This document shows positions 41,066 to 62,767 of a stretch of 64,000 bases of DNA, one piece after another. Below the pieces are notes generated by a model. It did no database searches. It was given only the letters and a program-made list of their open reading frames with translations, and was not told the DNA's origin. This stretch comes from Lingula anatina (taxonomy: Eukaryota; Animalia; Brachiopoda). The translations under genes were made by a program, and so were the position numbers. Positions within the stretch are counted from its first letter, which is position 1; every line of letters begins with the position of its first letter. The stretch covers positions 1,000,954-1,064,953 of the forward strand of contig CM120644.1 of NCBI GenBank assembly GCA_051362555.1. Reading direction: 5' to 3'.

Positions 41066-42942
41066 TTAATATATTTATTTACAAATACGTTGTTTGATTA
41101 TTTTTATTATCCATTTTGTCTTTACCATACATGTATTATGCACGTGTAGCTTAAAGAAAAGCTTTTCTGCATTTTTATTTTGTAATAAACAATATATGCC
41201 CATTGAATTTTCCAATTCTCTTGTCATTGAGTTCAGAAATAAATAACTTTATTTTGCCGATAAAGCGTTCAACAAGAGCCGATGTACTTTCTTCTTCGTA
41301 TGTCTCTGTTGATCTTGATAATATGAGCCCCGTTTGTACAAATCAGTAATACGTATACGGGACTGGATACATAATAATAAAAATATTATTAACGTCTCAC
41401 GTTAAAAAAATAGAATCTACCCTACTAAGGGTTATGAGAGACTAAAACCTGTGATAGGCCTACTACATTTAAAATGATCACTTATCAATAAAACACACAC
41501 AAAAAGGATATTACATACAAAACTTTTCAAACCTTCTCTTTGTTGGTACACAAAAAGTCGTGAAAGTTCTTGAATTTTTTGTAAGTAGAATCCCCGTGTA
41601 AAACTTCACAGCTTTTACTTTCTTTTTCCATTACCTCATGCTTAAAGTCTTTTCTTTCTTTTTAGGCCCCTATTCTTCAAATTTTTCTTAAGATCTTTAG
41701 AATGTTTTTTCTCGCATTGTTTACCCTCGAGTTCTATTTGCCGATAGTTCGTTATATCCGTTGATTAACTAAGCATTTCTGTTTTTTATTAAAGCACCAT
41801 TGATCTCCTAATATTATAGTTTTTCTTCCCGCCTTCGAAATGTTGCCCTGCTTTTGATCCAAACCTGCTATATTTTCCTTTCTTTCTACCATATTGTTCC
41901 TTCTACGGGGTTTGTTGGGAACTTATTAAACCTCATGTGTCGATCTCGCTTACTGTTATTGTAGCAGCGGGACAAAAAGCACGTAAACTCAGCCATGGTT
42001 TTTAGCACCGCTGTAAGTGTTTCGACATAGCAGGGCTCCCCTACCCACAATGCAATTGCCGTTTCCGGAAAAGATGAAAAAGGTCTATAGGATTGGACCA
42101 GTCTTAATTTATTATGTGGTGAATGACACATTCTCCATCGTCACAGTTGAATTACCCTCTACCAGGGCCGCAGTTATTATTGTGAATATTTTTGCTGAGG
42201 CGACCCTGTAATGTTTGGCCAGAGGGGAGCAATTAAATCTGCACGCGCGTAGATGGCATTGTACCTGCTCTGTAGGTGCTCAGATCAGTGAGAGCTGGGC
42301 TTTGCGCCAATGTAATTAACGCTTGTTACGCAACATGGCTTGTCTGGTCTGTCTGCTAAGGGGCTGTTTTTATTGTCACAGATAAGTAATTAACTCTCTT
42401 GATTGCTTTCAAGGGGTCTTGGCAGGGACTTGCTAAGTGACAGTGCCTGAGTAGTTATGCAAGCAATTACCAGCCATGTAATCATCCTTGATATTTCAGC
42501 ACAGGGTCATAGTACAGAGATTTGCCATCTATTTAACAAGAGACATCTGTTAATATCTGGTGAAAAACCAATAACAAAATATATCCCGTTCCTATTTATC
42601 ATGGGGCTATGTGAACTTTTAATGTGTGCTTGTACTTTGACATATATATTTATACAGTGTTTATATAAAGTTGCGGAAAAAATAGAGAATGAGTAAATAA
42701 GCTAATATATAAACGGATCTCTTCTTTCTATGCACATATTTTTATTTTGTATTTTGTTTGCTCTGATTTAAACATAAAGAGATTCAGCTTAGAAAAAAAC
42801 CTATCATTTTGTAAATATAAAGTGTATAAGCTGATCTACTTTTCGTTTTTCTTTGTTTGTTTGTTCATCTGTAAGTGCATGTCACCTGGAGGGGTATAAC
42901 GTAAATGATCTGCAGGTTTCCGTTATGTATTTCAGAGTCACC

Positions 42943-43243
42943 ATGAATGAAGATCAAAAGAAGAGGATCAGACAACAATATGTCTACCTGGTCAAAAACC
43001 TGACAGACCCGAGGAGTACAGGGCTTGTTGAACACCTGTACCAAGATGGCGTCATTGAGGAGAGAGATCGTCAGATTGTGGAGAGTAAAGCAGCGACAAA
43101 AGACGCCATAAAACATCTGCTAGATGCCGTCGTGAACTCTTCACATCAGGGTGCATTTGACTGTTTCCTCAAACTTTTAGAAGAATATGAACAAAAGTAC
43201 CTGGCCCATGCTTTAAGACAAAGTACAAGTTCTGACGGAACAG
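42943..43243 (+). CDS. CARD-Bbox-NHL gene 1, coding exon 1: CARD (death-fold) domain
   Basis: Acceptor tttcag, then GTCACCATG. MNEDQKKRIRQQYVYLVKNL...LVEHLYQDGVI...LLD...AFDCFLKLL...LA..L follows the CARD pattern. Phase-1 donor G|gt at 43243/43244 is at the same position in gene 2. Confidence 0.85.
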
Positions 43244-43682
43244 GTCAATATACTAATTGCAATATGTTTATATCCCTACTATTAAATATGAAATATTCTA
43301 ATCGTTCCTAATTTGTTTGTATAATGTAGGTTCGGACATAGCTCGCTGAGGGCTTGAATAAACTTTCCGATCCAAGAACTTTCACCGAACCAACATAGAA
43401 TTATAATTTGACATATGGTTTAGAACTTAACTTTTTTATTTCAACATACTGCACGTAAAATGAGTGATACATTATTTGGCTTTCTTGACAGCAGAGATTA
43501 TCCTTTTCACATGTTTTGTTAAAAACAAGCATCGTATGACAGTGTCAAGACATAGATGATCCATCTCATCTTTGTTTTAATCATGTACAAAATTTATGGA
43601 GATATCCGTTTTGTGCATTGCTTACATATAAGATTTGTATGCATGACTAATTATATACACTTATTATGTATTCAAATTCTAG

Positions 43683-45247
43683 GTTTGTGTGACGTGTGTC
43701 CAGAAGACAGTAAATCCCCTGCCACCTCCGTGTGTTTAGACTGCAACGAGCTAATGTGTTCTACGTGTGCCGACTATCATAGGAGGACAAGGGTCTTGAA
43801 AGATCACAGACTTAATGAAATAACAGCTGCCGTCACAGACAAATGCCAGGTTCATCCATCCCTTTATCTTAAATCTTACTGTCCCAAATGTGACGTCCTT
43901 GTCTGTGAGCGTTGTATGGTGGACACACACAAAGGACACACAGACGCTTGGAAAGACGCCATAATAGCGGCCGAGGACTTAAAATGTAAACTGAACGGGA
44001 TAATTGATGAAATCAGAGATATTGCTCTCGACAAACTTTCGATAGAAAAAGAAGAACAGAAACGGCTAGCCGACTTGGATAAGCAAAGACAACTCGCCAA
44101 ACAGGCTATTGAGACTCGAGAAGACGAACTTTACAGGTTGGTCAAAGCCTGTGCTGAAAAAGCCAAAGAAGGTTTAGCCAAAGCATATTTCGATATAAAA
44201 CGTCGGCTACGAATAACCAATAAAATAGAATCCCTCGAAAAACAACTGAAAGCCTATGAAAATATGGTGAATGACGCTTCCTTCTCTAGTGTACTTAAAA
44301 ATCATGCAGAATGGGAGATGTCACTAAAAGAAATGTTGGAGACGTATTCCCCCACCTCTCCTGTGCCTGTGCTAAGATATCAGACCTCCACTTGGGCAGA
44401 AACAGCCATACAGCAGGCAATGGGTAAGGTGGTTATAGATGAGATCACACCGACATTGATCACACAGCATCAACTGAAGTGTTCTCAGTATCCACTGGAG
44501 TTCCCCATAGCTGTGGACAGCACGCCTGGTGGTGACGTCGTGGTGGGGACGGGGTGTAATGATGATATAACCATGCAACGTATCATCATCTGTTCCTCCA
44601 AATGGAACATCAAGAAGGAGATCAAGGTTACGGGGCTGAGAGGACTGACAGTACTACGTGACGGTACAATAGCAGCTACTGTACAGATCGGCAGTACAGA
44701 GGAAGTGAGGATATACACAAAAGGTGGTGTTGTGAAATCATCGTTTAAGTGTAAGGAACCGGGTCGTATTGCAGTGAACCTCGAAGGTCACCTGGTCGTG
44801 ATGGATGATATCTGGGGTAAAGCAGATAAAGTAAAAGAATTTCGTCCTGACGGTACACAAATTAACGTATTCAGTGACACTTCAGCAAAAGCAGTACAGT
44901 ATTTCAAGTACATAACAACCACGCCCAGTGGTGACGTCATAGTATCAGATCCCAATGACTGCTGTATACGTGTCTACGCACCTAAGGGTCAGCTACGGTA
45001 CACGTACGGTGAGGAGGGCGTCATGAAGAGTTCAGCTGGTGTCTGTGTGGATGAAGATGGAACCATATTTATCTCTGACAACCTTGCTGACAACATCCAC
45101 CAGGTGTCTCCTGCTGGCCAGTTCATGCGATGTGTGCTGACAGACAAGGATGGACTTAGGAAACCCATGGCAGTGTGTATCAACCAGGAAGGGTACTTCG
45201 TGGTAGCTCAATTGGACGGATGGATCAAGACATACAAGTATAATTAA
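43683..45247 (+). CDS. CARD-Bbox-NHL gene 1, coding exon 2: B-box1, B-box2, coiled coil, NHL beta-propeller (spliced product 621 aa)
   Basis: Acceptor ttctag in matching phase. CDVC...CLDC...CSTC...H...H; CQVH...CPKC...CERC...H..H; helical charged segment; NHL-type repeats (e.g. GVCVDEDGTIFISD). No RING and no filamin domain. Confidence 0.92.
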
Positions 45248-46939
45248 CGATATATGCTGTTATTTACTCCCTGTCTATGATCAAAAGTGACACATAGCCT
45301 TCGATATGAAAACCAACGCGTAAATTAGAATAATACCTAGTCTGCCTATAATCAAACCTCTAAATGAATATCACATATTGAACTTAAATATCAGATGTGC
45401 ATTTTTTTTAGACATAAAACTGTGAGACCATATCCCAGTTCTTTCACTGCTAGGAACTGTAGATGTTTGCCTAATTTCACGCAAATTAAGTTTGATTCTA
45501 TGGTTTCTGAAGATATGTGAGTCAAAGCATCGTAAAAATCGTAAAAAAAAGATTACCCCTGAAAATGACAGAATAGGTGTCCTTTGTTTAGGAAGACTGA
45601 ATTTTTAAGCCTTTTAAACTTTAAAGTTTAGAATTGACCACGTCCAAATCTTGTCCTTTAAATCCTATCTCGTCTGAGCGTGGATTCAGTGGTGCGGTCT
45701 TTTACTGATAAGGGTAACGATATAAAATATTGATTTTGTTCATACAGGTAAATAATCAAAGCATCCTTTATTTAGGAATTCATACTTTTCGAACTAATGA
45801 TTAGCATCATCCGGCCTCTGACTTGTTAAATTTTTTATGTCATCTATCGTCACCACATTCGTATCTGCCGTGTGGTTATCATAGTGGAAGTCCGAAATTG
45901 ACTTTTTGAAATGATAACATCATAACTATATTTTGATGTGTAATCAAGTTTGTTTTTTTATCAATAAAACTGATATCCCAACTTTATCAGAGTACTTTTT
46001 TTCTATTTTAGATAAATATCCATGATGTTTTAAGACAAATGGAATACATTTGTATAATTGAATCTCACGAAGAAATTAACAAATAAATGAATAAGAGTTA
46101 AATAGAACGAGAGATAGAGTAACGTGTGACAGGGTTACACTGCATAAATAGATGAATGAAAAAGTTCACATTGTTTTTATAGTTAATTTAATTTTTTTCT
46201 GGATCTGTTGTTTGATGCCGTCTTTCATGTACTGAGAAACTAGTCGATTTCTTTTTCATTTTTTCCACAAGATAAAGTCAACATGCTGGCTACCGCGTAG
46301 TAGGTTATAATTCGAAGCGAATCATTGTCAGTTTTTTTTTTTTTTTTTTTTACTCTGGTTGCACCATTTGTATCAAACTGCATGAATACAAAAGTTATTA
46401 CTTGGACAGGCGGTGTATAAAAAAAACATAGCAGTTCCCAGACGCCTTGTACAAGTGAACTGATCATAACCGTGTGGTTTAAATCTAATATCGTCTAATG
46501 CTGACGGCCATGGGGAGGACAATGTGGTAGCAAAGCTAGCTTCACATCTAACACATCCGATATTCCGACGAACCCGTGCGGTGACAGTGGTATAAATGGT
46601 GCTACTGTTACGTGTGAAATAAATCTCGCCAGGCTCAGGAAATATCCCTAATGTGATAGATTTGTAACGCAGTTGGTAGCAAGATGAGCTTTTACATAAC
46701 ATTTAGTAATTAAAACTTCTGTGTAATAGACCAATGCCACACCTGGCTTCCTGTGAATATATTAGTCACACCGCTGTCATCTCTATTTTTATCTCGGATT
46801 TTCTGCAAGAGCAATTCCAAGTGATTATCCTTTAATCTCTCAAAGGTACAGAGAAATCTTAGGCTATCTTGAAAGTCGGTGTTGGACGGTGCTACCTTAA
46901 CTGAAGATGCAATTGTGACCATCGAGCCTTATGAGATTA

Positions 46940-47468
46940 TACATTCGAAGGGCCGCACATATATTATAGTAAGCGCCCGGTATTATGTTTATTAATCATC
47001 AATTACGGGTGAAAGTATTGTTTTATCAACGAGCGTAATATGCAATAGAAGTTTAAGGCCAAGTAGCCAGTATAACTAGTAACTGTTTATATAAAGAGAA
47101 ATATCCTGTCACCATCAGGCACGGTAAACAGTGACCTCACCCTCAAAATTCAGTATAAAGGGCGTCCCGATCTCTACATCAAAGAACTAACGCTAGACCG
47201 ATCCCAGGGACGTCAGAGTGACCACCAACGCCGAGAGCACGAGAGGGAGACTGAGGACTGAGGACGGCCGGCTCAACCAGAGCCTAGATCGAGGGAACGA
47301 TTGGGTCACTGTCTTACCGTAGCGTTGTGCCTACCTGAGCTAGATGTCCCTGTATATGTAACGGGTTAAAGTAATAAACTGTATTAATAGGGAAACCTAT
47401 CCTAGACTGTTGTGTCATTCTTACGAACCTCCGCGCACACGCCAAACTACCGCACCGGCCCCGTTACA
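46940..47468 (+). mobile_element. Possible solo LTR
   Basis: Internal TATAAA (about 47154) and AATAAA (about 47373); ends CCCGTTACA; GATTA(T) on both flanks. The 5' TG is absent. Confidence 0.35.
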
Positions 47469-47623
47469 GATTATTGTTGAAAATTTTGTTGAGACAAAAT
47501 TAAATTCATATTGTGAAAAATACGATAATCGAAAGCAGCATGAAAGTTACATGTATATACCTGTCCCCCAGAAACCGCGAGGTCCTTTGGGAGTTAATAA
47601 TAATAATCTTTATTGAAATATTG

Positions 47624-47625
<2 letters not shown>

Positions 47626-47678
<53 letters not shown>
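47626..47678. repeat. (TA)n microsatellite at the SINE tail
   Basis: Direct reading. Confidence 0.95.
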
Positions 47679-47679
<1 letters not shown>

Positions 47680-47683
<4 letters not shown>

Positions 47684-48018
47684 TTATTTATTTATTCATT
47701 TATTTATTTATTTATTTTTAAATGGAATTTATTTAAGTGAGAGAAGCCTGGTCATTTTTGGCCCTGTTGCACTCTATAGTCACTCTCACTTCCCTGGGGA
47801 GGATACAGCCCGGCTGCCATATTCGGCCCTCAGAGCTAACAAACTTATCAATTCTCCAGTGCCAGACCAGGCCCCTGCTTCAACCCCTAAGTGCTGAGTG
47901 CCAAGCGGGGAGACAGCAGGTACCGTTTATAAAGGACTGGTATGTCCCCGGACGGGGTTGAACCCACGTCCTCCCGCTCCGTAGGCGGACGCTCAAACCA
48001 GAAGGCCATCCGGTCGGT
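47680..48018 (-). mobile_element. tRNA-derived SINE
   Basis: Minus-strand head with A-box-like TGGCCTTCTGG and B-box GGTTCAACCCC, a GC-rich body (CTTGGCACTCAGCAC...GGCTGTATCCTCCCCAGGG) and an (AAAT)n tail. Confidence 0.8.
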
Positions 48019-49702
48019 ACAATCCGGTTGGCAGGATATTTTGATAGTTAATTCTCAGTGAAGTACGTCTTACCCAGACCTAGATTCCCAGATTTATTTG
48101 ACTGCAGCATATCACAGATATCCCTGTAGAACATACTTACCGTCCAGACAAAAACGTAAGTCCTACACAATTCAAGTCCGTACAATAATTATAATCTTGA
48201 AGCCACTATCGGCAATTATCGTGTGTTCGGCAGCCTGATGGGTGAGGTGTCTGGATGAAATACCAACCCTGCTGATATACTGAGATATCTACAGGAAGGA
48301 AGAGACCCACCTGGCTTATCTGAGGCTAGGAGGCTGGTTTCCACGTCCACGACAAGAGGGCTTTCTTCCTAAATTTACGTAGTCATTGATATAATTAATA
48401 TCTTATTGCATTATTTCGATATCTGAAATCCAAGGAGGATCTTGCTGATTGCTGTAAGACATTTTTCCTATCTTGAAAAGAGCCATTAAAAATAAAAAAT
48501 ACAAACTAGTTGATGAAAAATCCACATAACATGTGCAGATTTTAGAGAAATCATAGAATTTATTAAATAATATGTGCTTCTCTGACTTATGATTAGCATC
48601 ATCTAGGTTCTGACTTGATTCTTTTACGTGAACTTTTGTCAGGACGTTCGTGTCAGCAGTATGGCTCTCATAGTGGAAGTCCGAAATTAACTTTGGAAAT
48701 GATAACATTACAATTATATGAGAGAACAGTTTCATTAGCTCTGTATGTATCAATTTAAATTATTGTTTTTATATTTATATCAAGAGCGTATAAAATATGT
48801 GGGTATTACCTCCAATATTTCTGTGACTGTCAGTCACCATCATCAGGGAGTAAATGACTAGGGTCATTTCACCTGGAATGAAAATCCAGGTCAATTGCCC
48901 CTAATCACTGGCCTTGTGTTGTAACTGTTACATCTTCCCCCCGGGGCTCCTCTGCATCCCTCTGAAGCACCGTGAGGTAGATAGCTGGTAGATCATATCC
49001 CCCTGTCTGTTCAGGTCTGGTTGTTTGGTCCTGATGAGTACAGCTTCTGCTATTTTTCTTTGGAATGTCCCGTTTTCCCTGTTTTTTGATAAAAAAGATA
49101 AAAATAAATAAATAAATAAAAAATGCTATAATATTTTGATGCGTATTTTGATGCATATTTATCAAATAAACTGATATCTCAACCCTTGGGTTCTGTTTTG
49201 GGGCCACTGGGTTCCTCGCCGCACAGAAGTAACTAAACATATCAGAAAGGTGAAATTCTGTCTTATAGTGATCGGTGGTCTGATGCTTTTTTTAATGTCA
49301 TGTGAAACTAGTTGAAATGTTTCATCAATTTCTTCCATATTCACAGCCCTAAATAGACCTCTCCAGGTTGACCCTTCAACAAAAGGATCAAAGAGCCGTA
49401 AACCCTTGACTGACCAATGGACAGCCATGTTACAAACGGTTTAGTAACCAATGCAAACATGATACGGTTTCTATAGCAACATACTAGTTTTTTTTCCAGA
49501 TGTAAATACATTGAAATTTGCAAGGTATTTAACTGTACTAATATATATATATATACACAGTTTATGTGTATCTGGGTGTAAGGTGTATATATCGTGCATT
49601 CACATAAATAGAATAACAAATAAGTTGAATAGAACGAGAGAGACGCGCGTGTCAGAGTTACATGTATCACTACCATGGCAGCAGATGTGGACGGTAGCGG
49701 GA

Positions 49703-49845
49703 CACCGTTGTGGTAGCGGTGCCAGTTTGTCACAGCTGTTACATTCAATATTCTGAATGATGATGTTGTTAGGGAGGAGACCATTGTGGTAGCGGTGCCA
49801 GTTTGTCACAGCTGTCACAGCTGATATTCTGAATGATGATGTTGA
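49703..49845 (+). repeat. Tandem duplication, period about 77 bp
   Basis: TTGTGGTAGCGGTGCCAGTTTGTCACAGCTGT...ATATTCTGAATGATGATGTTG occurs twice. Confidence 0.85.
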
Positions 49846-50933
49846 AAGTGGTGCCCAACATTACGTTGTTAAAGAATCAAGAACAGATTTACAGACTTAA
49901 TATACTGTTACACTTCAAATTTAATTTGAAGTAGTTTAAAGGTATTTCATGAAAACACCATACATACTCAATGACGATTTTTTTTCTTCAAAATGACCGT
50001 TTGTGAAAAAATGACTCCGCCAGATAAGAATGAAAAAAATAAAAAGACCAAATGGTTATAAAACCACTCCGCTTATTCGTCACATACATAACTTTGCGAC
50101 GGGCTTTAGGAAAGTAAACGTAAGGTGTAAGCAAAAACTATCCTGGCCATTTTGGAGACTTTGGCTAGCCCCAAGTGCCATCGGCATGATTTACACCCAC
50201 TATTATTTACTTCATACGTACACGTGTATCAGTATCTCCAACACTTCAACCTACGATTTCCCTTGTATACAAGTCACCATATCAACAAAGCAGCCCAGGA
50301 CAACATATCAATGCAGAGATCCTGGCCACTACTTGTCGATATATACCTTACCCAGGTGTGACATATTTAAGTGAAGAAGTATCTGATAACCATATCTTCA
50401 GTACACACTTTATATAGTTAAGGTAAACATCAGCCAGCGTAACCTGACGCCATTAAAAAACTACAGGGACCAGGTTAAAAGGCGATTCCAGTCGTTCTCT
50501 TCAAGACAGCTGCTGTCCGTAGAACGGGAAAGAACAATTGCTCTCTTTACAGTAAGTACATGTACCATGTTGATTTTGTTAAGTGGACTGTTTCTTGCTT
50601 GGTAAAAAATAACGCCTTTGTATAAAGTAGAAGTTATTCGCATTACACATTTTCTACGCATTTTCACGCATAATTGAGTATAATGACTTCGTTTTACAAA
50701 GGACGGGAAAGAAAGTCACATTTACTAGTCACGGGAATGGGGTGCTTCACGGATCACGCTAAATACATGTAATTTTAACACCTCGAGCATTTCGGAAAAT
50801 AAAACGTGATTTTCCCGATAACGAAGATATATAATGGGATCCTTTAGTTGCAGTAGCTTAGTAACAGTAACCGGTCAGAGTAACAACTGAATGGCGGGGC
50901 AGGTGACCGAAGTAGATAAACTGATCTAATTAA

Positions 50934-51044
50934 GTGTTAGATAATACACCGTCACCCGAGCGATATATGCCATAGCACCTCGAGCGTCAGCGAGAGGTGT
51001 TCATGGCATATATCGCGAGAGGGTGACAGTGTATTATTTGACAT
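50934..51044. repeat. Imperfect ~50-bp-stem hairpin with GAGCGTCAGCGA loop
   Basis: ATAATACAC(C)GTCACCC..GCGATATATGCCAT..CACCTC pairs with GAGGTG..ATGGCATATATCGC..GGGTGAC(A)GTGTATTAT. Confidence 0.85.
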
Positions 51045-51349
51045 ACATGCCGAGAACAAATATAGTCATTTCACCCTAAAACACCCCTAAAACCGAATAA
51101 AGTTAACCGATATCACGCTCTAGAGATGTTATATGGAATAAACTCGTCCTCTTGCGCTGGTCACCTCCCGCCAAATTCTTATGTAATGTCTGACCAATTT
51201 GATCAATTTTTGCTAAATACTTGTCGTGGACGTTCAACTGGCTTGAAAAGTATTTAATCGACACTAACCATGCGCGTCTCATCTAGCTGAGCCACACCTA
51301 GCTGAGACTGCTGCGGAAAAAAGGTCCCAAGGCAAAACCTCCACTTTTT

Positions 51350-51661
51350 AGTGACATTTCTGATAAACAAGGAGTGTCGGACCAGAATATAGTCCAACTA
51401 ATTTTTCAAAAGTGTGAAGAAGAAAGAAATTTACTCATTGGTGATATTTCTGACAAGGAGGCAGTTTCGGAATATAGTCAAAGTCAGACGGATGTTTATT
51501 ACAAGTTCACGGGAGTAATAATTCTAGTTTTATTGTTATTTCTGACGACGAGGCGGTTACGGAATATAGTCAAAATCAAACGGAGGTTTATTTCAAGTCC
51601 ACAGGAGTAATAATTCTATGTTTTGGTGACATCTTTTACTACGAGGCGGTTTCGGAATATA
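51350..51661 (+). repeat. Degenerate minisatellite, period about 90-93 bp, roughly 3.4 units
   Basis: Recurring ATTTCTGA ... GAGGC(A/G)GTT(T/A)CGGAATATA ... GGAGTAATAATTCTA. Confidence 0.7.
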
Positions 51662-51748
51662 CAGTACATGTACTGGTTTTCAGAGCATCTATGTGCTACA
51701 AGTAATTACAAGTTCAAAAGGGGAATAGATTTGATTTTTACCGATATA

Positions 51749-54700
51749 CCGTACTCGGATTAAGAATGTGTACATTTACCCCGTGGACCATTTGAAGATT
51801 ACACTGCGATTAATGCGGTGGAAAATACAATAGAGAGAGTGTATAATGATAGGGTCGCTAAACGATTGTTGACGGCATATAGTAACTAGCCTAATCCCCT
51901 GGTCGCCTGGGTAGCCACGCCCCCTTAGAGTACTTATGTAAACAAACGGTCTCCCGTAGCGAACTATCCTTTTGTTCAACAGCTTCGCGCGTGCAGCTGA
52001 TTATGTATGTAGTGACACTATAGCTAACTGCATATAAATTTGTGCTAGCTGTTATTTGATGCATTCTGCTGTGTCAGATGTTGTGGATCAGCCCACTGGT
52101 TCGTTGACTTCTGTTTTTCTGAAAATTGGTGGTGCAGATTTTGAGTGCTTAATTATGTACCCTCCTTCTAACAAGAGAAAGGGGAAGGGAGATAAAAAGA
52201 GAGAGTGTCAAATGAAACGGGTAATGAGTAATACATTACATTAAATAAAGGGACTCGCGGTGGAAGAAACGATAGACTGTTTTGCATCAAGGTATGCCAT
52301 TATAATCCGACATGGCCCATAACATGATCCATGACATGACTCATTGTTGTATGCCTTATATTTGTGCCGACTCATATTTTACTCTCGTTCATTTCGTGAA
52401 ACTATTTCCTTAAAATAAAGTTTTGCCTGTATAAATTAACTTTGTGACATGAAGTAATTAATAAAACGCGCCTGTTGAAAAGGGGGCTTTTCGTAACTAA
52501 TAAAGGTTCACTATTCAGAAAAATATCGTCGCCGTTCGTCGCCGCTACCTTCAGGAAAGCGTACCCTCCGCGTGGATCACCGGCATTTTTGATTATCTGA
52601 CAAATTAGGGCAATTTACGTTTTAGCTAATAATTCTGAATTTACTAATATTTTGGACTAAATTCGATGTCAGATTCATAGCAATGACGGAGAGCCGACAG
52701 AGTAACTGTTTAATTTTCTAAACTAATCAAACTAGAACGCGTGGCGATAAAATGTGTCGCTAGATCTTGTAAACACTCAGCGAAATGCACCTAGTGACTA
52801 TATTCAATGTGCCGTCACTTAATTGCTTTCTCGATTTCTTTAATTGACGATAGTAATTGCAGATAACAAGGAAGAGGAAATGCTGAAGACAAAACAACGT
52901 CGGGGGTTTGTGTGACTTTCTCCCTAAACACTTTTTATGTTGCTGTCAAAGAAAAAGGAGTCTAGATAGCGATTATTTAAACCACTGCTGCTGCTTTTGC
53001 AGGTAGACTTCCTCGTTTATCATTTAAATGCTCCCCTCCCCCAGCAGACCCAACTTGATGCATGTACGTCTTGGTAGCTATAGTACAGATCTTGGTTCAA
53101 GTAATGAAATATTTAAGCACAAAACGATAATTTGAGGCTATTTTTTCATTCAAGACAAAATAAAGTATCTATGGTGTGTGACAATAGGGACTTTACAAAG
53201 CTTAATTTGTCCTTAAATATATATTCCAGTAGCATAGGCGAGCGACGTAATTGTAACCTCAACTTGAGGTATCCTCGATGAAAGCGGAGTACAAAAATTA
53301 ACTTTTTTAAATATCGATTACAACATGCTGTACAATGATATTGAGACTAAAGGGTTTAATGGACTTCTTTGCCTTAAAAGCAATTCATTTCAAAATTAAA
53401 AGAAACAGTTTTTTCGGGGAGCGCGGGTAGACAGTTTACGTCAGGTGATTCGTTAAAGTCGAGGAGTGTTTCACTATCAAATGTGTAAATCATATATGTC
53501 ATAAAACACTATAAGAAAGTTTTTTGTTACGATCTGCAACATTTGTTCATTTATATAGCAGGGCGAAGTTAAAGCCAGAGGTAAATAGAACCTAATACCG
53601 TAATCCTCCTCGTCCATTTATTTAAATCGTATCAAAACGTTTGATACACAATGTTCATTAAATTAATAATTTTAGCGATTTATTAAAACCATATTGGTAC
53701 ATAAAAGTTTAAGATTAGCATAAGTTAAGCAACAACCAGTATGAAGAACAACACCCTTTTTAAATGAGGCAAGACACCCTCTTTACACTGATTATAACCT
53801 TGAGAAAGACATTATGCAACTTAAGGTAAAGGAGTTATTTCATCTCGTGTGTGAATACAACACATTCTTTGTCACTTTTACAAGACAATGGAGGCGAGCA
53901 AGAAGAGTAATTACAATACACAATAAAAAGGACATTAGTATAGAAAGCTTACTTCGGGTCAGCCCTTTGCTTGTTCGAATGAAAGAGATAGATATCGCGC
54001 CGCGACTCCCTTTGTTAAACCTTCGTGTGTTTGTGTAAAAGTGTGAAAGACAGGCAACGGTCTTTAGTCGCTGTTGATATTGTTCGCGATTAAAATTGAA
54101 GTATAACTCCTTCGCCTGCATGTAAACGTGTTACTTTTCTTCATTCTCTATATTTCTTTTAGGTGGTTGAGACAACGGGATGAGATCGATAAAAGTAAAG
54201 GTTAATCTAAACAATTAGATGCGATTTTTGTGAAATGACTTATTAAGTGATGTGCATGTACCTAGCATGTTTAAATTCTTGAATTTCTAATTTGTTAAAT
54301 CTTTCATACGCGGCCTCATATATGTATTACTCTCAGGCCTTCGATATTATTGTGTTACACGGGACTCCTGGAAACATGAAGCACAGGTCTTGTTATCCTT
54401 TATGCAGTTTTATGGCTGGGATGAACACTGCGAAGTAGAAACAGGCTTTACTTAGCTTTACTTAATGTACGACAGTTTAAACAAAACCAGTCTGCAAGGC
54501 TTGCTTTAATTTGGCGTTAACCTTACACTGGTTTTAAAAGAACAAATATAAATATGTTCGATGGATTAAATGCCGGCTTTGTTATATTTTAACTAAATGC
54601 GTTCATTTGCACAGTTACACAGATAATATTTTTAAGTTGTCTGTCGTTCAGCACGCATTATAGGCGAGTAGCTAAATAGTGACGGTGATCAATCCAAGCT

Positions 54701-56115
54701 CAATCTTGGCAAGTATCGTTTACAAAATAGATCATGTTGAATAAACTTAATTACGCTTTAATAAATAATCAACACATGGTTCGGTAATTGTCACTTGAAA
54801 GCTTTCGATCAAAGACGTTCAATGAAATCACAAATCATTTGACGATTAAAAAATGGACATGTTCAAGGGGCAGTTTTTGTTTCAGATAAAGGGACTTCAG
54901 GTTCAGGTAGAGGGTTCAGTTACGTGTTTCATCGGATGATAGCATCACGCCCTTGGTCTAAGCGAGTTGAATAGAAGCTTTTTATCCAAACATCCTATTC
55001 CTAACTACTGAGTTAGGACAAAGGTCTAGTAACATGCACTGTGCAATTACTATTAATGGATCAGACGCATACTTGATTGTTTTTCCTCTGGTGTCGCACG
55101 TATGCATCCTTTCTTGAGTGATCTAAAACAAGTCGCTAGTGTACCATGTTGTAGCAAAATACGTTCGACATGGTGTTTCTGAACGGCAGCCGGAGACACA
55201 GTAATTGTATAGGCATGCTTTAAGCTTGTTTGAGAGACAATAACAGTCGGGTTTAACAATAGATAGCGACCATAGTAAGACCCCCTCCTATTTAACTGAT
55301 GATTTACACTTTTAATTGACCGTACTTTCGTATATTGTATGATCATACAGCCAGACTTCTCCCTGTTGCACGTTGTAGTTGGATTGTCATTGCGCCTATG
55401 TCAATGCACCTCATTTAATTTCAATATTATAATATAAGCATAATATAAGTAATATGTTATTTCCTTATTCCTCTTTCATTATCATTCATGTTTTATAAAT
55501 ACTTGAACGCTTGAATGCAGATATTTCAAATTAAAACGTAAGTACATAAATAAATTATACATTTATAAATTAATGCAATAGGAATTTTTTGAGACAGATT
55601 GATGCTGACGCTCATGCATTTCAACCAAATAAACAATAATTAGTTCAATTTTTGACTGCGGAAATTTCATATAGGATGAAATAACTGATAACAAATTTAA
55701 CTAGCAGTTTGTTAGCAACACTAAAAACCAGCTGCGCGTGCCAAACTAGTGAACAAAAGGACAGTTCGCTTCGCGTGGCACGCCTTAGCATGGGTTTAGC
55801 CTCTTCAAGCTATAATCCTATCGCCGCAACAAACAATAGGGACCTTCTGGCTGATGTATCCTGCTGTTAATTACACCTAGTTGCAGCGGATTGTCACGCT
55901 CGCGCTGGGCCACAGAAACCGGCGTCATGGGGTTCACTCGTATTAAGTATTGTGTTATTCCACCTAAGCTATTGTGTTTGTGCGTTCGAATTTTGAAGGG
56001 ATTTATACGGCCCTCCATTGTTTGTCCGCCCCCTTCTATTCACAAGATAGGGATTAAAACATTTCGAACGTGGTTACACCGGTGTACAACGGAAACAAAA
56101 TTATTCCGATCACTG
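51749..56115 (-). mobile_element. Copy D: complete, uninterrupted 4367-bp TA-flanked element (reference copy), lying between NHL genes 1 and 2
   Basis: TA at 51747-51748 and 56116-56117. Termini TACCGTACTCGGATTAAGAATGT and TACAGTGATCGGAATAATTTTGT (reverse complement) match at 16/23. No long ORF. Confidence 0.88.
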
Positions 56116-57651
56116 TATCTGATAAAGAGGAAGAATGAACAGCTTAAAAACAAAAGGTAAATCACACAACCCTCGTTAAAAAGTTATAGATTTACAAATA
56201 CAGTAATTATTTGTATGCACGCGTGGCTTAAATGTAAACTAATTCCCGTTTTCAAACCGTACCCATATGATATGACTTAGTGTAATAAAATTATAAAGAA
56301 CAATTGTTAAACGTGATAAGTTTATGTTAATTTTTAAGAGTGAAAGAGATTTTAAATTTGTCAACTGGTAGGTACATGTATATAACGCAAGTAAAGTCAC
56401 TGTTCTCTTGATGCCAAGAAGGTCACATGATCACTGTCTTCGGCTTTCAGCATTTAAGAGACCTCGACTGATTTAACCAAGATGTAGTCGTGAAATTCTA
56501 GACTACATCGAGGTTAAATCCGAATTTTCCGAGAGTCGCTACGCACAAATCTCGAGTGAAGCGAGATATTTTTGGGTAGCGGCTCGAGGTTGCCCTCGAT
56601 CTTCACTGAAGCTTGACTAAATGGAAGCTTGACTAAATGGACAGGCTTCAATGATCAGCATATCGCCACTGTCATATAACATCCCTAGGTATGTATTGTG
56701 CAGAATATTCGGGGCTACGTGACACCTGTCACGTCCATGCCCATGTTCCAGTACCTCCCCTTATTAAAAGGAAGGCACTTTGAATCAACTTGATATCCCT
56801 ATAAGTCAGCTGACGATGACTTGACAAAAAATGCTGTCTTATCGATTACTTACAACCCTCTTGCTTCGTTCTTAAAGTGATTTTGGCCAGTGGGCGTACT
56901 ATTTCAGTTAATTTGGGTTCCTTAACATTGGCTTCTGGTAGCAATGGCAAACGTCTGGTGAGCGTCGTGATGCACGAGGGGCAACTTCCCTTGATTAACA
57001 GAACAATGCATCGCCATTTATCTGATGTCCGCTCTTGCCTGTACATTGGATTTTAATAATGTTTTCTGGGGAATATGCTCCGTTCAGGCCATTCCAATGA
57101 TCTGACACATGTTTCATTACGTGCCGTATGTTAAATATCACTGTTTTTTAACAATAATTAGATTAATTTACTTACCCCCTACAAGGGCTGCAGATTAATT
57201 GTGAGTCCCTTTCTCTAAAGCGACAATTATCAAGATATATATTTGTTAATATCTAGTGAAAACATTAATCTGTAGTCATAATAGAGGGTACTGTTTGACC
57301 CAGTTGTACACAACTTCTGTCATGTAAGATATTTCATTTTCACTATAAAAATTTTGTCAAGCCTTGGGCAACAGGCGAACACAAATGAGAATACTGGTGT
57401 TATGAACGATACATGCACATTGTGTTGTGCAAAGGTTAATATTGACGATGAAGACTACAACTCTGACTCAGTAAGCAGTCGGCATTGCTGTATACTTCCT
57501 ATTAAGGATTCCTCATTGCGGACATATTTTATGATGCAGTTTAATCCATACTTTTGTATCAGTGGGCTATTTTCTCTTCAAATATTCACTCGCACTTGGA
57601 CATGTACCGAAAGATATATAGTTAGTAGTTACTGAAAAAAATGATACAGAA

Positions 57652-57682
<31 letters not shown>

Positions 57683-57900
57683 ACAAACAGTATCACTTCC
57701 TTCTAGGCAAATACATTTTATTCGTATTTTGTTAGCTCCATATAAACATAAAAAGATCCACGAAATAAATTACTACCTAGATGTTTTATTAATAGTATAT
57801 ATGTCTACCTACTTATTTGTTTTTCTTGTGTACCTTTGTTCATCTGAAGGGACAAGACGTATATGTTCTGCATGTTTCCGTTATATATTTCAGAGTCATC

Positions 57901-58201
57901 ATGAATGAAGATCAAAAGAAGAGGATCAGACAGCAGTATGTCTACCTGGTCAACAACCTGACAGACCCGAGGAGTACAGGGCTTGTTGAACATCTGTACC
58001 AAGATGGCGTCATTGAGGAGAGAGATCGCCAGATTGTGGAGAGTAAACCAGCGACAAAAGACGCCATAAAACATCTGCTTGATGTCGTGATGAACTATTC
58101 ACATCAGGGCGCATTTGATTGTTTCCTCAAACTTTTAGAAGAATATGGACAAGACTTTTTGTCCAATGTTTTAAGACAAAGTGCCAGCTATGATGGAACA
58201 G
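57901..58201 (+). CDS. CARD-Bbox-NHL gene 2, coding exon 1: CARD domain
   Basis: Paralog of 42943-43243 with the same upstream acceptor, the same 301-nt length and a phase-1 donor. Confidence 0.85.
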
Positions 58202-58522
58202 GTATATAACCTAGCCAATGCCAATTGTACCCTGTATTTCAATCATAAGTTGAGCGGCAATTTGGAAAATTAATCATATTGAACATTGCCATTGCAAACT
58301 TCAGTGTTCGAGTAGTAACAATGAATCAGAGCACAGGATTTTGGATCGAACATATTTTGAACTATTGAGCGGTGCTCGCAAAATGATGTTATATTAGGAA
58401 TAATAATATCACACAAAACTTCCATTTCTGTAAGACAGATCTGTGAAAAAATGTTAAATATCTTTTCCAGTACAAAAGTCTATTTTATCAAAATTGGAAA
58501 CACGTATTTATTCACATTCTAG

Positions 58523-60069
58523 GTTTATGTGACGTGTGTCCAGAAGACAATAAATCCCCTGCTACCTCCCTGTGTTTGGACTGTAACCAACTCATGTGTT
58601 CTACGTGTGCCGGCTGTCATAGAAGGGCAAAAGTATCGAAGGGTCACAGACTGAAAGAATTAACAGCAGCCCTCACAGACAAATGTCAGGTACACCCATC
58701 CCTTTATCTTAAATCCTACTGTCCCCAATGTGACGTCCTTGTCTGTGAGCGATGTATGGTGGACACACACAAAGGACACACAGACGCTTGGAGAGACGCA
58801 ATAACAGCGGCAGAGGACTTGAAATGTAAACTGAACGGGATTATCGATGAAATCAAAGATATAACTCTCAAGAAACCTTCGATAGAAAAAGAAGAACAGA
58901 AACGACTAGCCGACTTGGACGAGCAAAGGCTGCTAGCTAAACAAGCTATTGAGGCACGAGAAGACGAACTTTACAAGCTGGTGAAAGCAGGTGCTGAAAA
59001 AGCCAAAGAGGATGTAGACGAAGCGTATTTGGATATAAAACTTCAGCTGCAAATAACCAATAAAATAGCATCCCTCGAAAAACAACTCAAAGCATATGAA
59101 AATCTGGTGAAAGACGCTTCAGCTTCAAGTGTATTTAAAAATCACGCGGAATGGGAGACTTCACTAAAGGAAATGTTGGAGACGCATTTCCCCTCCTCTC
59201 CTGTGCCCGCGTTAAGATTTCAGACCATCACTTTGACAGAAACAGCCATACAGCAGGCAATGGGTGCGGTGGTTATAGGAGAGATCACGCCGACACTGAT
59301 CACACAACACCAATTGCAGTGTTCTAAGGATCCACAAGAGTGGCCGATTGCTGTGGACAGTATGCCTGGTGGTGACGTCGTGGTTGGGACGTGGTGTAAT
59401 GCTGATAGAAGCAAGCAACGCATCATCATCTGTTCCTCCTCAGGGGACATCAAGAAGGAGATCAAGGTTACGGGGCTGAGAGGACTGACAGTACTACGTG
59501 ACGTTACAATAGCAGCTACTGTATATGACGGCAGTACACAGGAAGTGAGGATATACACTAAAGACGGTGTATTGAAATCATCGTTCAAGTACAGCACACC
59601 CAGTCGTATTACAGTGAACCACGAAGGTCAGCTGGTCGTGATGGATGATAAAGTAAGAGTATATCATACTGACGGTACACAGGTCAGGGCGTTCACTGAC
59701 ACTGCTTCGAAACCAGCACAATATTCCAAGTACATAACAACCACACCCAGTGGTGACGTCATAGTATCAGATCCCAATGACTGCTGTATACGTGTCTACA
59801 CACCTGAGGGTCAGCTACGGTACACGTACGATGGGAAGGACGTCATGAGGAGATCTCATGGTGTTTGTGTGGATGAATATGGAATCATATTTATCTGCGA
59901 CATCCTTGCTGACAGCATCCACCAGGTGTCTCCTGCTGGCCAGTTCATGCGATATGTGCTGACAGCCAAGGATGGACTGAGGGCACCACACGACGTGTGT
60001 ATCAACCAGGAAGGGCACCTCGTGGTAGTTCAAGAGGACGGATGGATCAAGACATACAAGTATAAATAA
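58523..60069 (+). CDS. CARD-Bbox-NHL gene 2, coding exon 2: B-boxes, coiled coil, NHL repeats (spliced product 615 aa)
   Basis: Acceptor ttctag at 58517-58522. Open frame colinear with gene 1 apart from a 6-aa indel (IWGKAD). Confidence 0.92.
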
Positions 60070-61391
60070 CGACATATGGTGTTATTTACTCCTCGTCCTT
60101 GATCAAATGACACATCGGCTTCAATATGAAAGACGATAATGTTTACAAATTTAATCTGTATACTAATATAATCATACCTGTACATGGATATCACATATTG
60201 AGCACAATTATCAGATGTGTATATTTTTTGTAAATATAAAACTGTGAGACCAAGGAGAATTTGAGACTCATCATACAACAACAATATATATATCGATGCT
60301 TAACCAAATAAGGCATAACGATCGAACCTTCATGAAACGGGTCAAAGAGCCGTAAACCCGTGTCTGACCAATGGACAGTCTTTTTAGAAACGGCTTCGTT
60401 ACAGATGCAAATAAATGACCCAATGACTGACGGTTTCTTTAGAGACGGGTTACATTTTAACAGTTGTAAATACATTAAAGCATGAGAGAACTTTAGTATA
60501 ATAGTATATATGCAGTGTAAGACGATATGGGTATACGGGGGTGTAGAGACATTTTAAGATTAACCCATCCTTTTTAATGGCTTGATTCGGCAGAGGCACC
60601 TGGCCTGAATGTATATGTACATATAAACTAATTAATTTTTACCTATTATTTTCTTTTACATGATTGAATCTACCTACAATTATAACAATATACGTGCATG
60701 TATTAGAAGAGCTTGACATCAGGACGATAATGTGAATTTACATAACTTTAATTTTACTCAAGAGTTTCCCTATAGCTAGAAACTGTATTTTTGCCTCATT
60801 TCACTCAGATATAAGTTTGATTCTAAGAATATTCAAACGGTATGCGAGACAAAGCCAAGTCTAAAAATCAAGCAGAATCATAAAAAATATCACCCTTAAC
60901 GCAAAAGATTTTGGATGTTTTTGAATAGGTGTCCTTTAGGAACCCTGAATTTTGTGCACTTTTAATCTTTAAAGTTTATAATCAACCACGTTCACATCTT
61001 ATTAAATCCTCTCTCGTCTGAAGCATTGACGTGGATGTCGATACGAAATTATTGCATACAGGTTAATAATTAAAGTTTTGCTTATTTAGGAATTCATACT
61101 TTTATTTAGGAATTCATACTTTTTGAACTAATGATCAGCATCATCCAGGCTGTGATTTTTTAATGTCATCTATCGTCACCACGTTCTTGTCAGCGGAGTG
61201 GCTATCATAATGGAGCTCTCAGATTAAATTTTGAAATGACTAAGTTTGTTTTTGTCTATTAAATTAAAAAGACGCCATCAAATGTCACCAAATTCACAAA
61301 CAATTAGCATTAGTGTGTGCTCCTTAAAGGTCACGTGCCTAACAGCGTGTGCGGCTACCGCGTACTGCAATTATCTCCCGGAGACGGCGCG

Positions 61392-62106
61392 ACTGCCCTT
61401 ACCTTTCATATCCAGTGAAGTGTCACTTCCTAATAACCGGTCACAAGCAGTACAGAGGGCATTGTGGCAAAAGAGGAAGATGATGAAAAGCGAAACTTAC
61501 CGTGAAGATTATGTAGCATTTGTTACAAATATTTTGGAGCATGGTTATGCAGAGCGTGTTCCTCTTTATGATGTTTCAGCACAGGGCCAAGTATGGTACC
61601 TACCTCATCACGGTATATACAACCCAAACAAACCGGGGAAAATTAGAGTGGTGTTTGATGCGAGTGCCAAGTTTCAAGGGACAAGCTTGAATGATCACCT
61701 ATTACAAGGACCGGATCTGGCCAACAACTTGGTGGGAGTTCTTTGTAGGTTCCGTCAGCATCAAACCGCATTCACTGCCGATATAGAATCCATGTTTTAT
61801 CAGGTCTGTGTTCCAGAAGAACAGAGAAGTTTTATGAGATTCATGCGGTGGGAAAACGGTGACTTGCAAGAATATCAGATGAGCGTTCATCTTTTTGGTG
61901 CCGTTTCCTCTCCTAGTGTTGCCAATTTTGTTCTGAAGAAAATTGGGGCTCAAGCAGAAAATTCTGAAGTAAGTAAAACTCTTCTCAGAAATGACTATGT
62001 AGACGACTGTATTAAATCTGTGAAATCTACCTTTGACGCCATCCGACTGGTAGATAATCTTCAGAAAACCTGTGCAAGCGGAGGATTCCATCTTACCAAG
62101 TTCTCA
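61392..62106 (+). mobile_element. BEL/Pao LTR-retrotransposon RT fragment
   Basis: LPNN...A..R, WYLPHHGIY, KPGKIRVVFDASA, SLNDHLLQGPDL, DIESMFYQV, HLFGAVSSP, YVDD, GFHLTKF: the typical Pao RT motif series. Confidence 0.9.
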
Positions 62107-62767
62107 ACATATCATCATCTATTCCTCCATAGGGGACATCAAGAAGGAGATCAAGGTTACGGGACTAAATGGACTGACAGTACTACGTGACGGTACAATA
62201 GCAGCTACTGTATGGGACGGCAGTACACCGGAAGTGAGGATATACAGTAAAGACGGTGGTGTGAAATCATCGTTCTAGTGCAGCACAATTGGTCGTTTTG
62301 CAGTGAACCACGAAGGTACCTGGAATGTACCTGGAAGGTACCTGGAATGAGGTTATGGTATATCGTACTGACGGTGCCCAGATCGGATCATTCATAGACA
62401 CCTCATCGAAACCAGTACAATATACCAAGTACATATCAACCACACGCAGTGGTGACGTCATAGTATCAGATCTCAATGACTGCTGTATACGTGTCTACAC
62501 ACCTGAGGGTCAGCTACGGTACACGTACGTTGGGGAAGGCGTCATAATGGTTTCACAGGGTGTCTGTGTGGATGAAAATGGAGCCATATTTATCTCCGCC
62601 TTCCTTGCTGACAACATCCACCAGGTGTCTCTGCTGGCCAGTTCATGCGATATGTGCTGACAGAAAAGGATGGACTGTGGAGATCCAGGGCTGTGTGTAC
62701 TAAGCAGGAAGGGCACCTCGTGGTAGCTCAGGAGGACGGGTGGATCATGACATACAAGTATAAATAA
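62107..62767 (+). pseudogene. Third NHL paralog, 5'-truncated pseudogene
   Basis: Aligns to the NHL region of genes 1 and 2. In-frame TAG at 62276-62278, short GTACCTGGAA repeats near 62316-62350, a 1-bp deletion near 62630, the same TYKYK* end and a homologous 3' flank. Confidence 0.88.

Follow-up and report, generated by a model that had tools for sequence, protein, structure and literature searches.

A multi-copy family of RING-less CARD/B-box/NHL genes in the brachiopod Lingula anatina, with candidate roles as diversifying immune sensors

The 64,000-nucleotide stretch of Lingula anatina DNA analyzed here (the window) harbors two intact genes whose predicted products carry a CARD where a RING would be expected, followed by two B-boxes, a coiled coil and an NHL propeller. 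On balance we favor, with somewhat more confidence than doubt, the reading that these genes encode diversifying cytosolic immune sensors, namely TRIM-NHL proteins in which the RING was likely swapped for a CARD, with a variable propeller top face that would bind and a CARD that would recruit. Both genes are composed of two exons in our splice models: gene 1 (42943–43243 joined to 43683–45247, + strand) encodes 621 residues and gene 2 (57901–58201 joined to 58523–60069, + strand) encodes 615, each without an internal stop and each with a GT donor, an AG acceptor and a phase-1 intron. The earlier note had proposed two intact genes of these lengths, and the open frames and phase-matched GT..AG introns bear this out, with the splice itself a prediction. 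Exon 2 is 85% identical between the two genes at the DNA level; their introns are similar at the acceptor end only. The features of the two genes are as follows.

42676–42942, +: block upstream of gene 1, about 80% identical to 57649–57900, that contains a pyrimidine-rich tract and, 7 nt short of the ATG, the end of an acceptor-like TTTCAG
42943–43243, +: gene 1 exon 1, CARD (residues 7–93; Pfam CARD E 1.1e-12; six helices in models) and short linker
43244–43682, +: gene 1 intron, GT..AG, phase 1, predicted (splice model; read depth)
43683–45247, +: gene 1 exon 2 to the stop, with B-box1 (about 43688–43810), B-box2 (43838–43942), coiled coil (about 43958–44344) and six-bladed NHL propeller (about 44453–45241)
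57649–57900, +: block upstream of gene 2, whose acceptor-like site is as in gene 1, again 7 nt ahead of the ATG
57901–58201, +: gene 2 exon 1, CARD and linker (Pfam CARD E 3.6e-10)
58202–58522, +: gene 2 intron, GT..AG, phase 1, predicted (splice model)
58523–60069, +: gene 2 exon 2 to the stop, with B-box1, B-box2, coiled coil and NHL propeller; the blade-3 top loop has lost 6 residues

Because the acceptor-like site precedes the ATG in both copies, the upstream blocks suggest a further 5′ exon, probably untranslated.

The order CARD, B-box, B-box, coiled coil and NHL, with no RING, was first read from the sequence in the earlier note and is upheld by the Pfam scan and structure models, with room for a further upstream exon. 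The N-terminal domain of both genes passes the Pfam CARD HMM at the E values listed above. It folds as a six-helix bundle in the models (pLDDT 63 for the CARD-only model), and the matching folds are mostly of the death-fold type, the best being CED-4/CED-3 and Apaf-1 (Z 8.2 and 7.9, rmsd 3.5–3.7, 90–93 aligned). A Foldseek search with the CARD-only model gave no match at E ≤0.001, and the best phmmer match of the CARD is weak (E 0.015). In exon 2, two stretches match Pfam B-boxes (E 3e-12 and 2e-12), with 16/16 zinc-ligand Cys/His positions intact in both genes, and the B-box/coiled-coil region is similar to TRIM28 (E 9e-15). Helices at residues 193–321 form the coiled coil in the structure model of the paralog P0005. 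The NHL match lies above the curated Pfam cut-off and the modeled propeller has 24 strands at residues 358–618 (pLDDT about 95); its Foldseek match is the TRIM2 NHL domain (E 3e-20, TM 0.79), and the nearest folds are those of TRIM2/3, Thin, Brat, Mei-P26 and TRIM71.

No Pfam RING family is present in either exon of genes 1 and 2, a motif search of all six frames of the window, blind to a RING divided between exons, found no complete one, and the eight close RefSeq models discussed below also have none (8/8); a canonical RING E3 TRIM is rejected for the exons as modeled. Likewise, no Pfam match to a NACHT/NB-ARC NTPase was found, other domains account for the whole sequence, and membership among the NLRs is rejected on the missing NTPase. 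No filamin domain is listed for the CARD/B-box/NHL proteins.

Sequencing reads were drawn from four runs chosen by species label, with tissues of origin not given. Over 38200–46300 two expressed repeats dominate the coverage. Both gene 1 exons are thinly covered (about 1–8 fold) in 1/4 runs only, by reads carrying gene-2-like letters, while depth within the gene 1 intron is 0 in the bin 43349–43619 in 4/4 runs. Expression of the CARD/B-box/NHL genes is low. Among the junctions listed for 38200–46300 (at least 15, all inside repeats), none spans the gene 1 intron. This last result, together with the acceptor-like sites, which permit an in-frame upstream exon in both copies, would suit an error in the gene models, with the CARD exon belonging to a gene of its own or a RING supplied by an upstream exon. 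We consider this highly improbable: the phase-matched GT..AG intron is kept in both copies despite a diverged intron interior, the CARD is joined to the B-box in 6/8 close RefSeq models and in the more distant P0009, and the start methionine is shared with 5/8 of the close models, in line with the missing RING in those models and in the window.

Beyond gene 2, the earlier note had described a third gene copy as a pseudogene. It is indeed a pseudogene, and the full layout does not extend to it: what is left is a broken 3′ piece of the propeller lacking CARD, B-box and coiled coil. The window is rich in retroelements, one of which lies beside this remnant.

62105–62767, +: copy 3, pseudogene remnant covering most of the NHL propeller (residues 399–620), with a stop at 62276–62278 and frame breaks near 62317–62346 and 62630
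61240–62100, +: reverse-transcriptase fragment immediately preceding copy 3 (Pfam RVT_1 E 2.5e-7), which we take to be Pao/BEL-type from its motifs
48560–49663, +: noncoding fragments similar to the sequence that flanks the duplicated unit on its 3′ side (E 2.5e-24 and 2.9e-18 with blastn and nhmmer), possibly remnants of a copy that was lost, or dispersed repeats

The two genes have many relatives in the same species. Among 7,994 scored candidates, eight L. anatina RefSeq proteins are 71–79% identical to the window genes; Pfam finds a CARD in 6/8 and a RING in 0/8, the start methionine of the window models recurs in 5/8, and the eight are placed on five contigs, some with neighboring accessions. 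A ninth L. anatina protein, P0009, has the same layout at 28–30% identity. Several of these models are truncated or degenerate (e.g., B-box1 of P0006, and P0008), and a 49-residue extension of P0004 that matches propeller sequence was treated as a gene-model chimera. The nine RefSeq relatives and the pseudogene copy support the multi-copy family that had been proposed, one whose copies undergo birth and death, and a single-copy developmental gene is rejected. The earlier note had not recognized a characterized family and had allowed for database entries. No characterized family was found, and a literature search returned no description of a CARD/B-box/NHL family, the main Lingula immunome paper being outside its scope; database entries do exist, as the nine RefSeq models named TRIM71-like, TRIM2-like, TIF1-beta-like or uncharacterized.

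The RING-less B-box/NHL scaffold is widespread in molluscs, and since it is so common there, the CARD fusion alone appears to be the unusual part. Atlas scores to lophotrochozoan B-box/coiled-coil/NHL clusters of 50–251 members are 0.89–0.92. A CARD was found in 1/60 Pfam-scanned relatives, that one also from L. anatina, and the CARD family is listed for none of the Atlas clusters shown. With residues 1–200, the best Atlas score is 0.75 and no CARD + B-box cluster is shown among clusters of at least 50 members. Of 7,992 candidates scored with a profile from a four-sequence CARD alignment, just three were recovered, P0009 and two unrelated proteins with propellers, which says little about range. 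A CARD-only search of longer proteins gave 7 matches among 219 candidates, all of this family, and a close CARD turned up in no caspase or adaptor, which is weak evidence. We regard the family as likely a lingulid-brachiopod one.

The family's origin was approached through trees from B-box1 onward (N-terminus left out, LG+G4, midpoint root), in which P0009 and P0144 form long branches. In a 56-row tree, the CARD rows make up one side of a branch (10/56 rows, SH-aLRT 99); 3 rows were skipped for length and 6 as redundant or over-long, rows lacking the B-box pattern, P0014 among them, do not enter the tree, and some rows labeled "none" do have a Pfam RING (P0146, P0147). In a 27-row tree, with starts set by hand and P0014 included, the CARD rows again fall on one side of a branch (6/27 rows, support 100/99). 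On the B-box-to-NHL trees they adjoin the RING-bearing P0010, P0012, P0014 and P0144, the nearest of which, P0010, shares 31% identity across 550 columns. Because all CARD proteins group together beside RING-bearing TRIM-NHLs, a single RING-to-CARD swap on a TRIM-NHL scaffold is likely.

Variation among the copies is concentrated on loops that the structure model places on the propeller top face. Across 10 sequences, entropy exceeds 1.5 bits in 17/70 top-loop columns and 0/55 bottom-loop columns (Fisher p 2e-5); the contrast persists with loops as units (p 5e-4) and with Gly/Pro/Asp columns dropped (15/48 versus 0/31), the sequences being related paralogs with non-independent columns and 8/10 of them predicted RefSeq models. 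Mean pairwise identity is 86% in the CARD, 70% on the top face and 86% on the bottom face, and the CARD and zinc ligands are conserved across paralogs. The top loops are also longer than the bottom loops and may simply tolerate change. Two codons at blade-equivalent positions stand out.

44639–44641, +: hypervariable top-face codon, residue 420, in G-L-x-G-L, with 8 residues in 10 paralogs and invariant neighbors
45167–45169, +: hypervariable top-face codon, residue 596, in P-x-[A/D/V]-V, with 8 residues in 10 paralogs

Between gene 1 and gene 2, dN/dS is 0.31 in the CARD, 0.23 and 0.05 in the B-boxes, 0.25 in the coiled coil and 0.83 in the NHL, with N:S counts of 77:29 against 55:55 (p 8e-4). 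These ratios point to purifying selection on the CARD, B-boxes and coiled coil; the high NHL value is partly due to low synonymous divergence there (four-fold sites 11/93 versus 23/73, p 0.003). For the loops, dN/dS is 0.9–1.3 at the top, confounded by the low dS, and near 1.3 at the bottom on few changes. Across the three window copies there are 52 non-synonymous changes in 87 top-face codons against 29 in 86, and 20 synonymous changes on the top face against 8, such that N:S does not differ (p 0.53). A PHI-type test suggests a mosaic history (p 0.02 on 98 sites).

An N:S ratio that is not raised on the top face is what near-neutral birth and death would give, in which a repeat-rich region duplicates genes and loops drift under relaxed constraint with no new specificities; the retroelement-rich surroundings, low expression and truncated or degenerate models such as P0006 and P0008 are in keeping with it. 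We nevertheless judge it quite improbable, given the constraint on the CARD, B-boxes and coiled coil (dN/dS 0.05–0.31), individual codons that take 8 different residues across 10 sequences and are flanked by invariant neighbors, and a layout retained across a split at 30% identity.

The propeller's structural neighbors raise another alternative, that these proteins bind RNA and regulate it post-transcriptionally in the manner of LIN-41, Brat or Mei-P26. Each paralog would then be adapted to its own endogenous RNAs, and through the CARD they would be linked to apoptotic control in development or the germ line. An invariant Arg in blade 3 and a near-invariant Lys in blade 4 at the top face fit such a role, and NHL surfaces are described as changing fast between RNA-binding modes (PMC5908797); the hypervariable sites were matched to LIN41 RNA contacts by spacing only, with no LIN-41 orthologue among the proteins compared. 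Nonetheless, the top loops are not net basic (13 basic and 18 acidic residues in gene 1, 14 and 16 in gene 2, at most +1 in 10 sequences, by a crude residue count rather than electrostatics), in contrast to the Brat and LIN41 faces, which are basic. Recent tandem copies and pseudogenes are also unlike conserved low-copy regulators, and we regard this alternative as rather unlikely.

Under the sensor reading that we favor, the variable top face, the surface through which NHL domains bind (PMC4015489), would engage a ligand that is either foreign or damaged self, and a caspase or adaptor with a CARD of its own would be drawn in by the conserved CARD. Judging from solved TRIM structures, the coiled coil would form an antiparallel dimer with CARDs about 17 nm apart and propellers near the middle; one source gives both the 170 Å spacing and the pyrin precedent (PMC4455283). 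A repetitive ligand could then cluster several dimers via the B-boxes, bringing the CARDs together for CARD–CARD assembly and caspase activation. An in silico survey reports CARD caspases, CARD-NLRs and GSDME in Lingula and places ASC in Craniata only (PMC11508797). On the sensor reading, the pyrin/TRIM20 design would have been reached independently, with a propeller for B30.2 and no need of ASC. More tentatively, and short of an even chance, we propose a lingulid repertoire of ASC-free, NTPase-free inflammasomes independent of pyrin, built by an old RING-to-CARD swap and tandem expansion with exchange, in which diversified blade-equivalent residues would give each paralog its own microbial ligands and the CARDs would nucleate caspases directly.

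The same anatomy, with its missing catalytic domain, would serve a decoy or brake that binds ligands or RING-bearing TRIM relatives while its CARD sequesters caspases or adaptors, damping death or inflammation. CARD-only proteins and ARC act as such brakes in mammals. Pyrin itself has been described both as an inhibitor and as a promoter of IL-1beta maturation (PMC4455283). We think a brake unlikely, as it would not obviously need many copies differing at the binding face.

If the sensor reading is true, the RING-to-death-fold swap known from vertebrate pyrin arose independently in a lophotrochozoan, caspase coupling by cytosolic sensors would be possible with neither an NTPase switch nor ASC, and the extensive B-box/NHL expansions in molluscs and brachiopods, so far unexplained, would become easier to approach: with a CARD as output, recognition of a ligand by such a propeller could be read out as caspase activation or cell death. 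In any case, the RefSeq label "E3 ubiquitin-protein ligase TRIM71-like" is misleading for these proteins.

The earlier note had likened the layout of sensor, oligomerizer and effector to the NLRs. Variation on the propeller ligand face and a conserved CARD fit the layout itself; the choice of analogue gives way to pyrin/TRIM20, which is closer because there is no NTPase switch. CARD-NLRs and Apaf-1/CED-4 share an N-terminal CARD and a C-terminal repeat or propeller sensor, whereas the NACHT/NB-ARC is missing here and it would fall to the coiled coil and B-boxes to provide oligomerization. The best sequence and fold matches are the TRIM-NHL proteins (Marin subfamily C/class VII: TRIM2, TRIM3, TRIM32/Thin, TRIM71/LIN-41, Mei-P26 and Brat), which have B-box1, B-box2, a coiled coil and a six-bladed NHL; the Lingula proteins differ in having no RING, no listed filamin domain, an N-terminal CARD and a hypervariable top face that is not net basic, and without a RING they are not expected to act as E3 ligases, whatever their RefSeq names say. 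The lophotrochozoan B-box/coiled-coil/NHL expansions (mollusc "TRIM2/3-like" proteins and brachiopod RING-B-box clusters) are alike in scaffold and expansion, yet the CARD family is listed for no cluster shown. Pyrin/TRIM20 (MEFV) is likewise a RING-less TRIM with a death fold at the RING position, then a B-box, a coiled coil and, at the C-terminus, a domain for interactions (PMC4455283), and is reported to recruit ASC and caspase-1 (PMC6698799). Membership is rejected, with a CARD and an NHL propeller instead of PYD and B30.2/SPRY, and the comparison is one of how the proteins may work. Furthermore, the Lingula genes are multi-copy with a variable head and have two B-boxes joined by a short linker, whereas pyrin has one behind a 60–280 residue linker and senses Rho inactivation indirectly. 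Because the Lingula scaffold is NHL-class, we infer that it arose independently of pyrin.

The CARD-bearing TRIM-NHL architecture is real. Gene 1 and gene 2, described in an earlier note as intact two-exon genes of 621 and 615 aa, hold up as such in the gene models, with GT..AG introns and translations free of internal stops. The same note's reading of a CARD instead of a RING also holds: exon 1 passes the Pfam CARD profile (E 1.1e-12 in gene 1, 3.6e-10 in gene 2), exon 2 of both genes carries two B-box stretches and NHL repeats, and Pfam finds no RING in either. The full RING motif is absent from all frames of the window, and no further CARD or B-box copies were found elsewhere in it. The third copy is a pseudogene, as proposed, with a stop and broken frames, but does not extend over a whole gene. 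The main features are:

42943-43243 and 43683-45247: gene 1, GT..AG phase-1 intron, 621 residues
57901-58201 and 58523-60069: gene 2, GT..AG phase-1 intron, 615 residues
62105-62767: copy 3, residues 399-620 only, frames broken, stop at 62276-62278
4143-8944, + strand: pieces of an LTR-retrotransposon pol (RT and RNase H, plus a weak match to an integrase zinc finger; Pfam and window comparison)
28075-30538, - strand: non-LTR (LINE-like) reverse-transcriptase remnant, Pfam RVT_1 E 2e-37
24765-25570, + strand: non-LTR (LINE-like) reverse-transcriptase remnant, Pfam RVT_1 E 1e-6
1-3659, 16496-19949, 30521-32570, 36794-38041 and 51747-56118, both strands: multi-kilobase repeat, apparently non-coding, 85-96% identity
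~40726-41070 and 42173-42546: pair of short elements upstream of gene 1, each with inverted ends

In exon 2, gene 1 and gene 2 agree at 77% of protein and 85% of DNA positions, and their introns can be aligned at the acceptor end only. Within ~280 bases conserved in both genes lies an acceptor-like site 7 nt 5' of the ATG, and hence an upstream exon is likely from the sequence. Copy 3 is fused behind a reverse-transcriptase fragment and has an 11-nt unit repeated ~3 times (62316-62349) where the blade-3 top loop would lie; that loop is deleted in gene 2 too, and is the most variable one of the CARD family (the window genes and their L. anatina RefSeq paralogs).

The window has the composition of AT-rich animal DNA, and the long open frames scanned left of 42 kb are mostly retroelement pieces by Pfam. 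At 7028-8062 a different kind of frame breaks into the LTR-retrotransposon pol, which a 548-bp direct repeat (3112-3659 and 3658-4205) flanks; one copy of the multi-kilobase repeat separates gene 1 from gene 2. Four RNA runs, selected by species label, were compared with window positions 38200-46300. In all four, poly(A) RNA reads match the ~40726-41070 element by the thousand (90-99% identity), the pattern expected of an element that is present in high copy and carried within many transcripts. One of the four, X7, gives ~1-8 fold coverage of both gene 1 exons and none of the mid-intron bin. At 42975, 42978, 42996, 44978 and 44984 its variant letters are those of gene 2, and its reads therefore derive from gene 2 or a different paralog, not from gene 1. 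The splice is thus a prediction supported by sequence and independent gene models, not by displayed reads.

A word-based search with exon 2 (7,994 candidates scored) returned eight matches, all L. anatina RefSeq models at 71-79% identity; neither gene 1 nor gene 2 is close to any of them. Six of the eight have a Pfam CARD, five share the start methionine and none has a RING. We consider a gene-model error very improbable. With paralog P0005 as query, a full HMMER scan over 1.84 billion representatives yielded 7,881 matches, 150 of them listed. After the close paralogs, the best of these is P0009 (L. anatina XP_013387785.1), which at ~30% identity shares the CARD-B-box-B-box-coiled-coil-NHL layout and is the only one of 60 relatives from those 150 with a Pfam CARD; 23 of the first 31 Pfam-scanned relatives from the same 150 have a RING-family match. 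A local CARD profile run over 162 collected proteins matched the CARD family alone, apart from a faint match in P0153 (668-739, E 0.018), which also has NHL repeats; in P0124, Roc and COR domains come after N-terminal NHL repeats, and both proteins, which were among the HMMER matches, are possibly other propeller-headed signaling proteins. Atlas neighbors comprise B-box/NHL clusters from molluscs and RING-bearing ones from echinoderms and brachiopods, with CARD listed for none of those shown. In midpoint-rooted trees omitting the N-terminal domain and containing long branches, the CARD rows fall together on one side of a branch with good support, adjoining RING-bearing rows among which are L. 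anatina P0012 and P0014. The simplest reading, with lineages outside Lingula partly sampled, is one old RING-to-CARD exchange, which the location of the CARD on its own exon may have eased, followed by recent expansion of one branch. Paralog P0001 (L. anatina XP_013408630.1) is modelled at 860 aa with a tandem pair of propellers; its sensor head may truly be duplicated, or the model may fuse a gene with a copy-3-like downstream remnant.

The AlphaFold2 model of P0005 (44-row alignment, mean pLDDT 87) starts with an N-terminal bundle of six helices, from which a flexible linker (94-99) leads to the two B-boxes; long helices (193-321) and a six-bladed propeller of 24 strands follow. The top Foldseek matches for the propeller are the NHL domains of TRIM2 (E 3e-20, TM 0.79), TRIM3, Thin, Brat, Mei-P26 and TRIM71. 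For the window CARD, modelled from a single sequence (pLDDT 63), most fold matches are death folds, with CED-4/CED-3 and Apaf-1 scoring best (Z 8.2 and 7.9), which leaves its subtype unfixed; by sequence it lies nearest, weakly, to the RAIDD and caspase-1 CARDs (E 0.015-0.059).

The top face of NHL propellers, formed by the b-c and d-a loops, binds RNA in Brat (Loedige et al., PMC4015489, in the part available). Across ten sequences (the two window genes and eight RefSeq models, strand limits from the model), 17/70 top-loop columns exceed 1.5 bits vs 0/55 bottom-loop columns (p 5e-4 with loops as units), or 15/48 vs 0/31 without Gly/Pro/Asp columns. Residues 420 and 596 each show eight amino acids between invariant neighbors, with similar variable sites in blades 2, 5 and 6, immediately ahead of strand a and again 15-16 residues further on. 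Matched by spacing, without alignment, these sites appear to correspond to the RNA contacts of LIN41, which form two comparable series (564, 611, 658, 707, 752 and 581, 628, 676, 722, 770; PMC5908797, in part). The top face is not net basic by residue count, and we think it rather unlikely that the CARD family proteins regulate endogenous RNA. The CARD and zinc ligands are conserved and the top face is variable; at least five residue types occur in 0/93 CARD columns vs 10/263 propeller columns.

Between gene 1 and gene 2, dN/dS reaches 0.83 in the NHL region and stays at 0.05-0.31 in the CARD, B-boxes and coiled coil, but the NHL region also has the lower synonymous divergence (four-fold sites 11/93 vs 23/73); bottom loops reach ~1.3 on few changes. 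Among the three window copies, N:S on the top face (52:20) is not higher than in the rest (38:11; p 0.53). Given the low ratios outside the propeller, drift seems improbable. Distances are poorly correlated across domains, and p is 0.02 in a PHI-type test; the copies have probably exchanged sequence.

In antiparallel TRIM coiled coils the N-terminal modules lie ~170 A apart with the C-terminal heads near the center, and many TRIMs sense higher-order ligands (PMC4455283, in part). In a resting dimer of the window proteins the two CARDs would thus be too distant to signal; propellers binding a repetitive ligand would cluster dimers through B-box contacts, and the clustered CARDs could nucleate a caspase or adaptor. 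Lingula has CARD caspases, CARD-NLRs and GSDME according to an in-silico survey that reports ASC absent outside Craniata (PMC11508797, in part), making direct CARD-CARD recruitment plausible. We hold a decoy role to be unlikely; we lean modestly towards ligand-clustered dimers whose CARDs nucleate a caspase or adaptor.

The earlier note recognized no characterized family, and we found no description of CARD-B-box-NHL proteins in the open literature (subscription journals and supplements lay outside its scope, and Gerdol et al. 2018, which deals with immunity in Lingula, might describe them); the parts available of PMC8195603, PMC2575513 and PMC8662601 do not mention the layout. Database entries do exist, as the RefSeq models attest. 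The window proteins are TRIM-like members of the NHL class, Marin subfamily C (PMC3503706, in part). Membership among canonical E3 TRIMs, NLRs or pyrin was rejected. They are nonetheless built like pyrin, whose function is described in PMC6698799 (in part) and in which the RING is replaced by a PYD (PMC4455283, in part).
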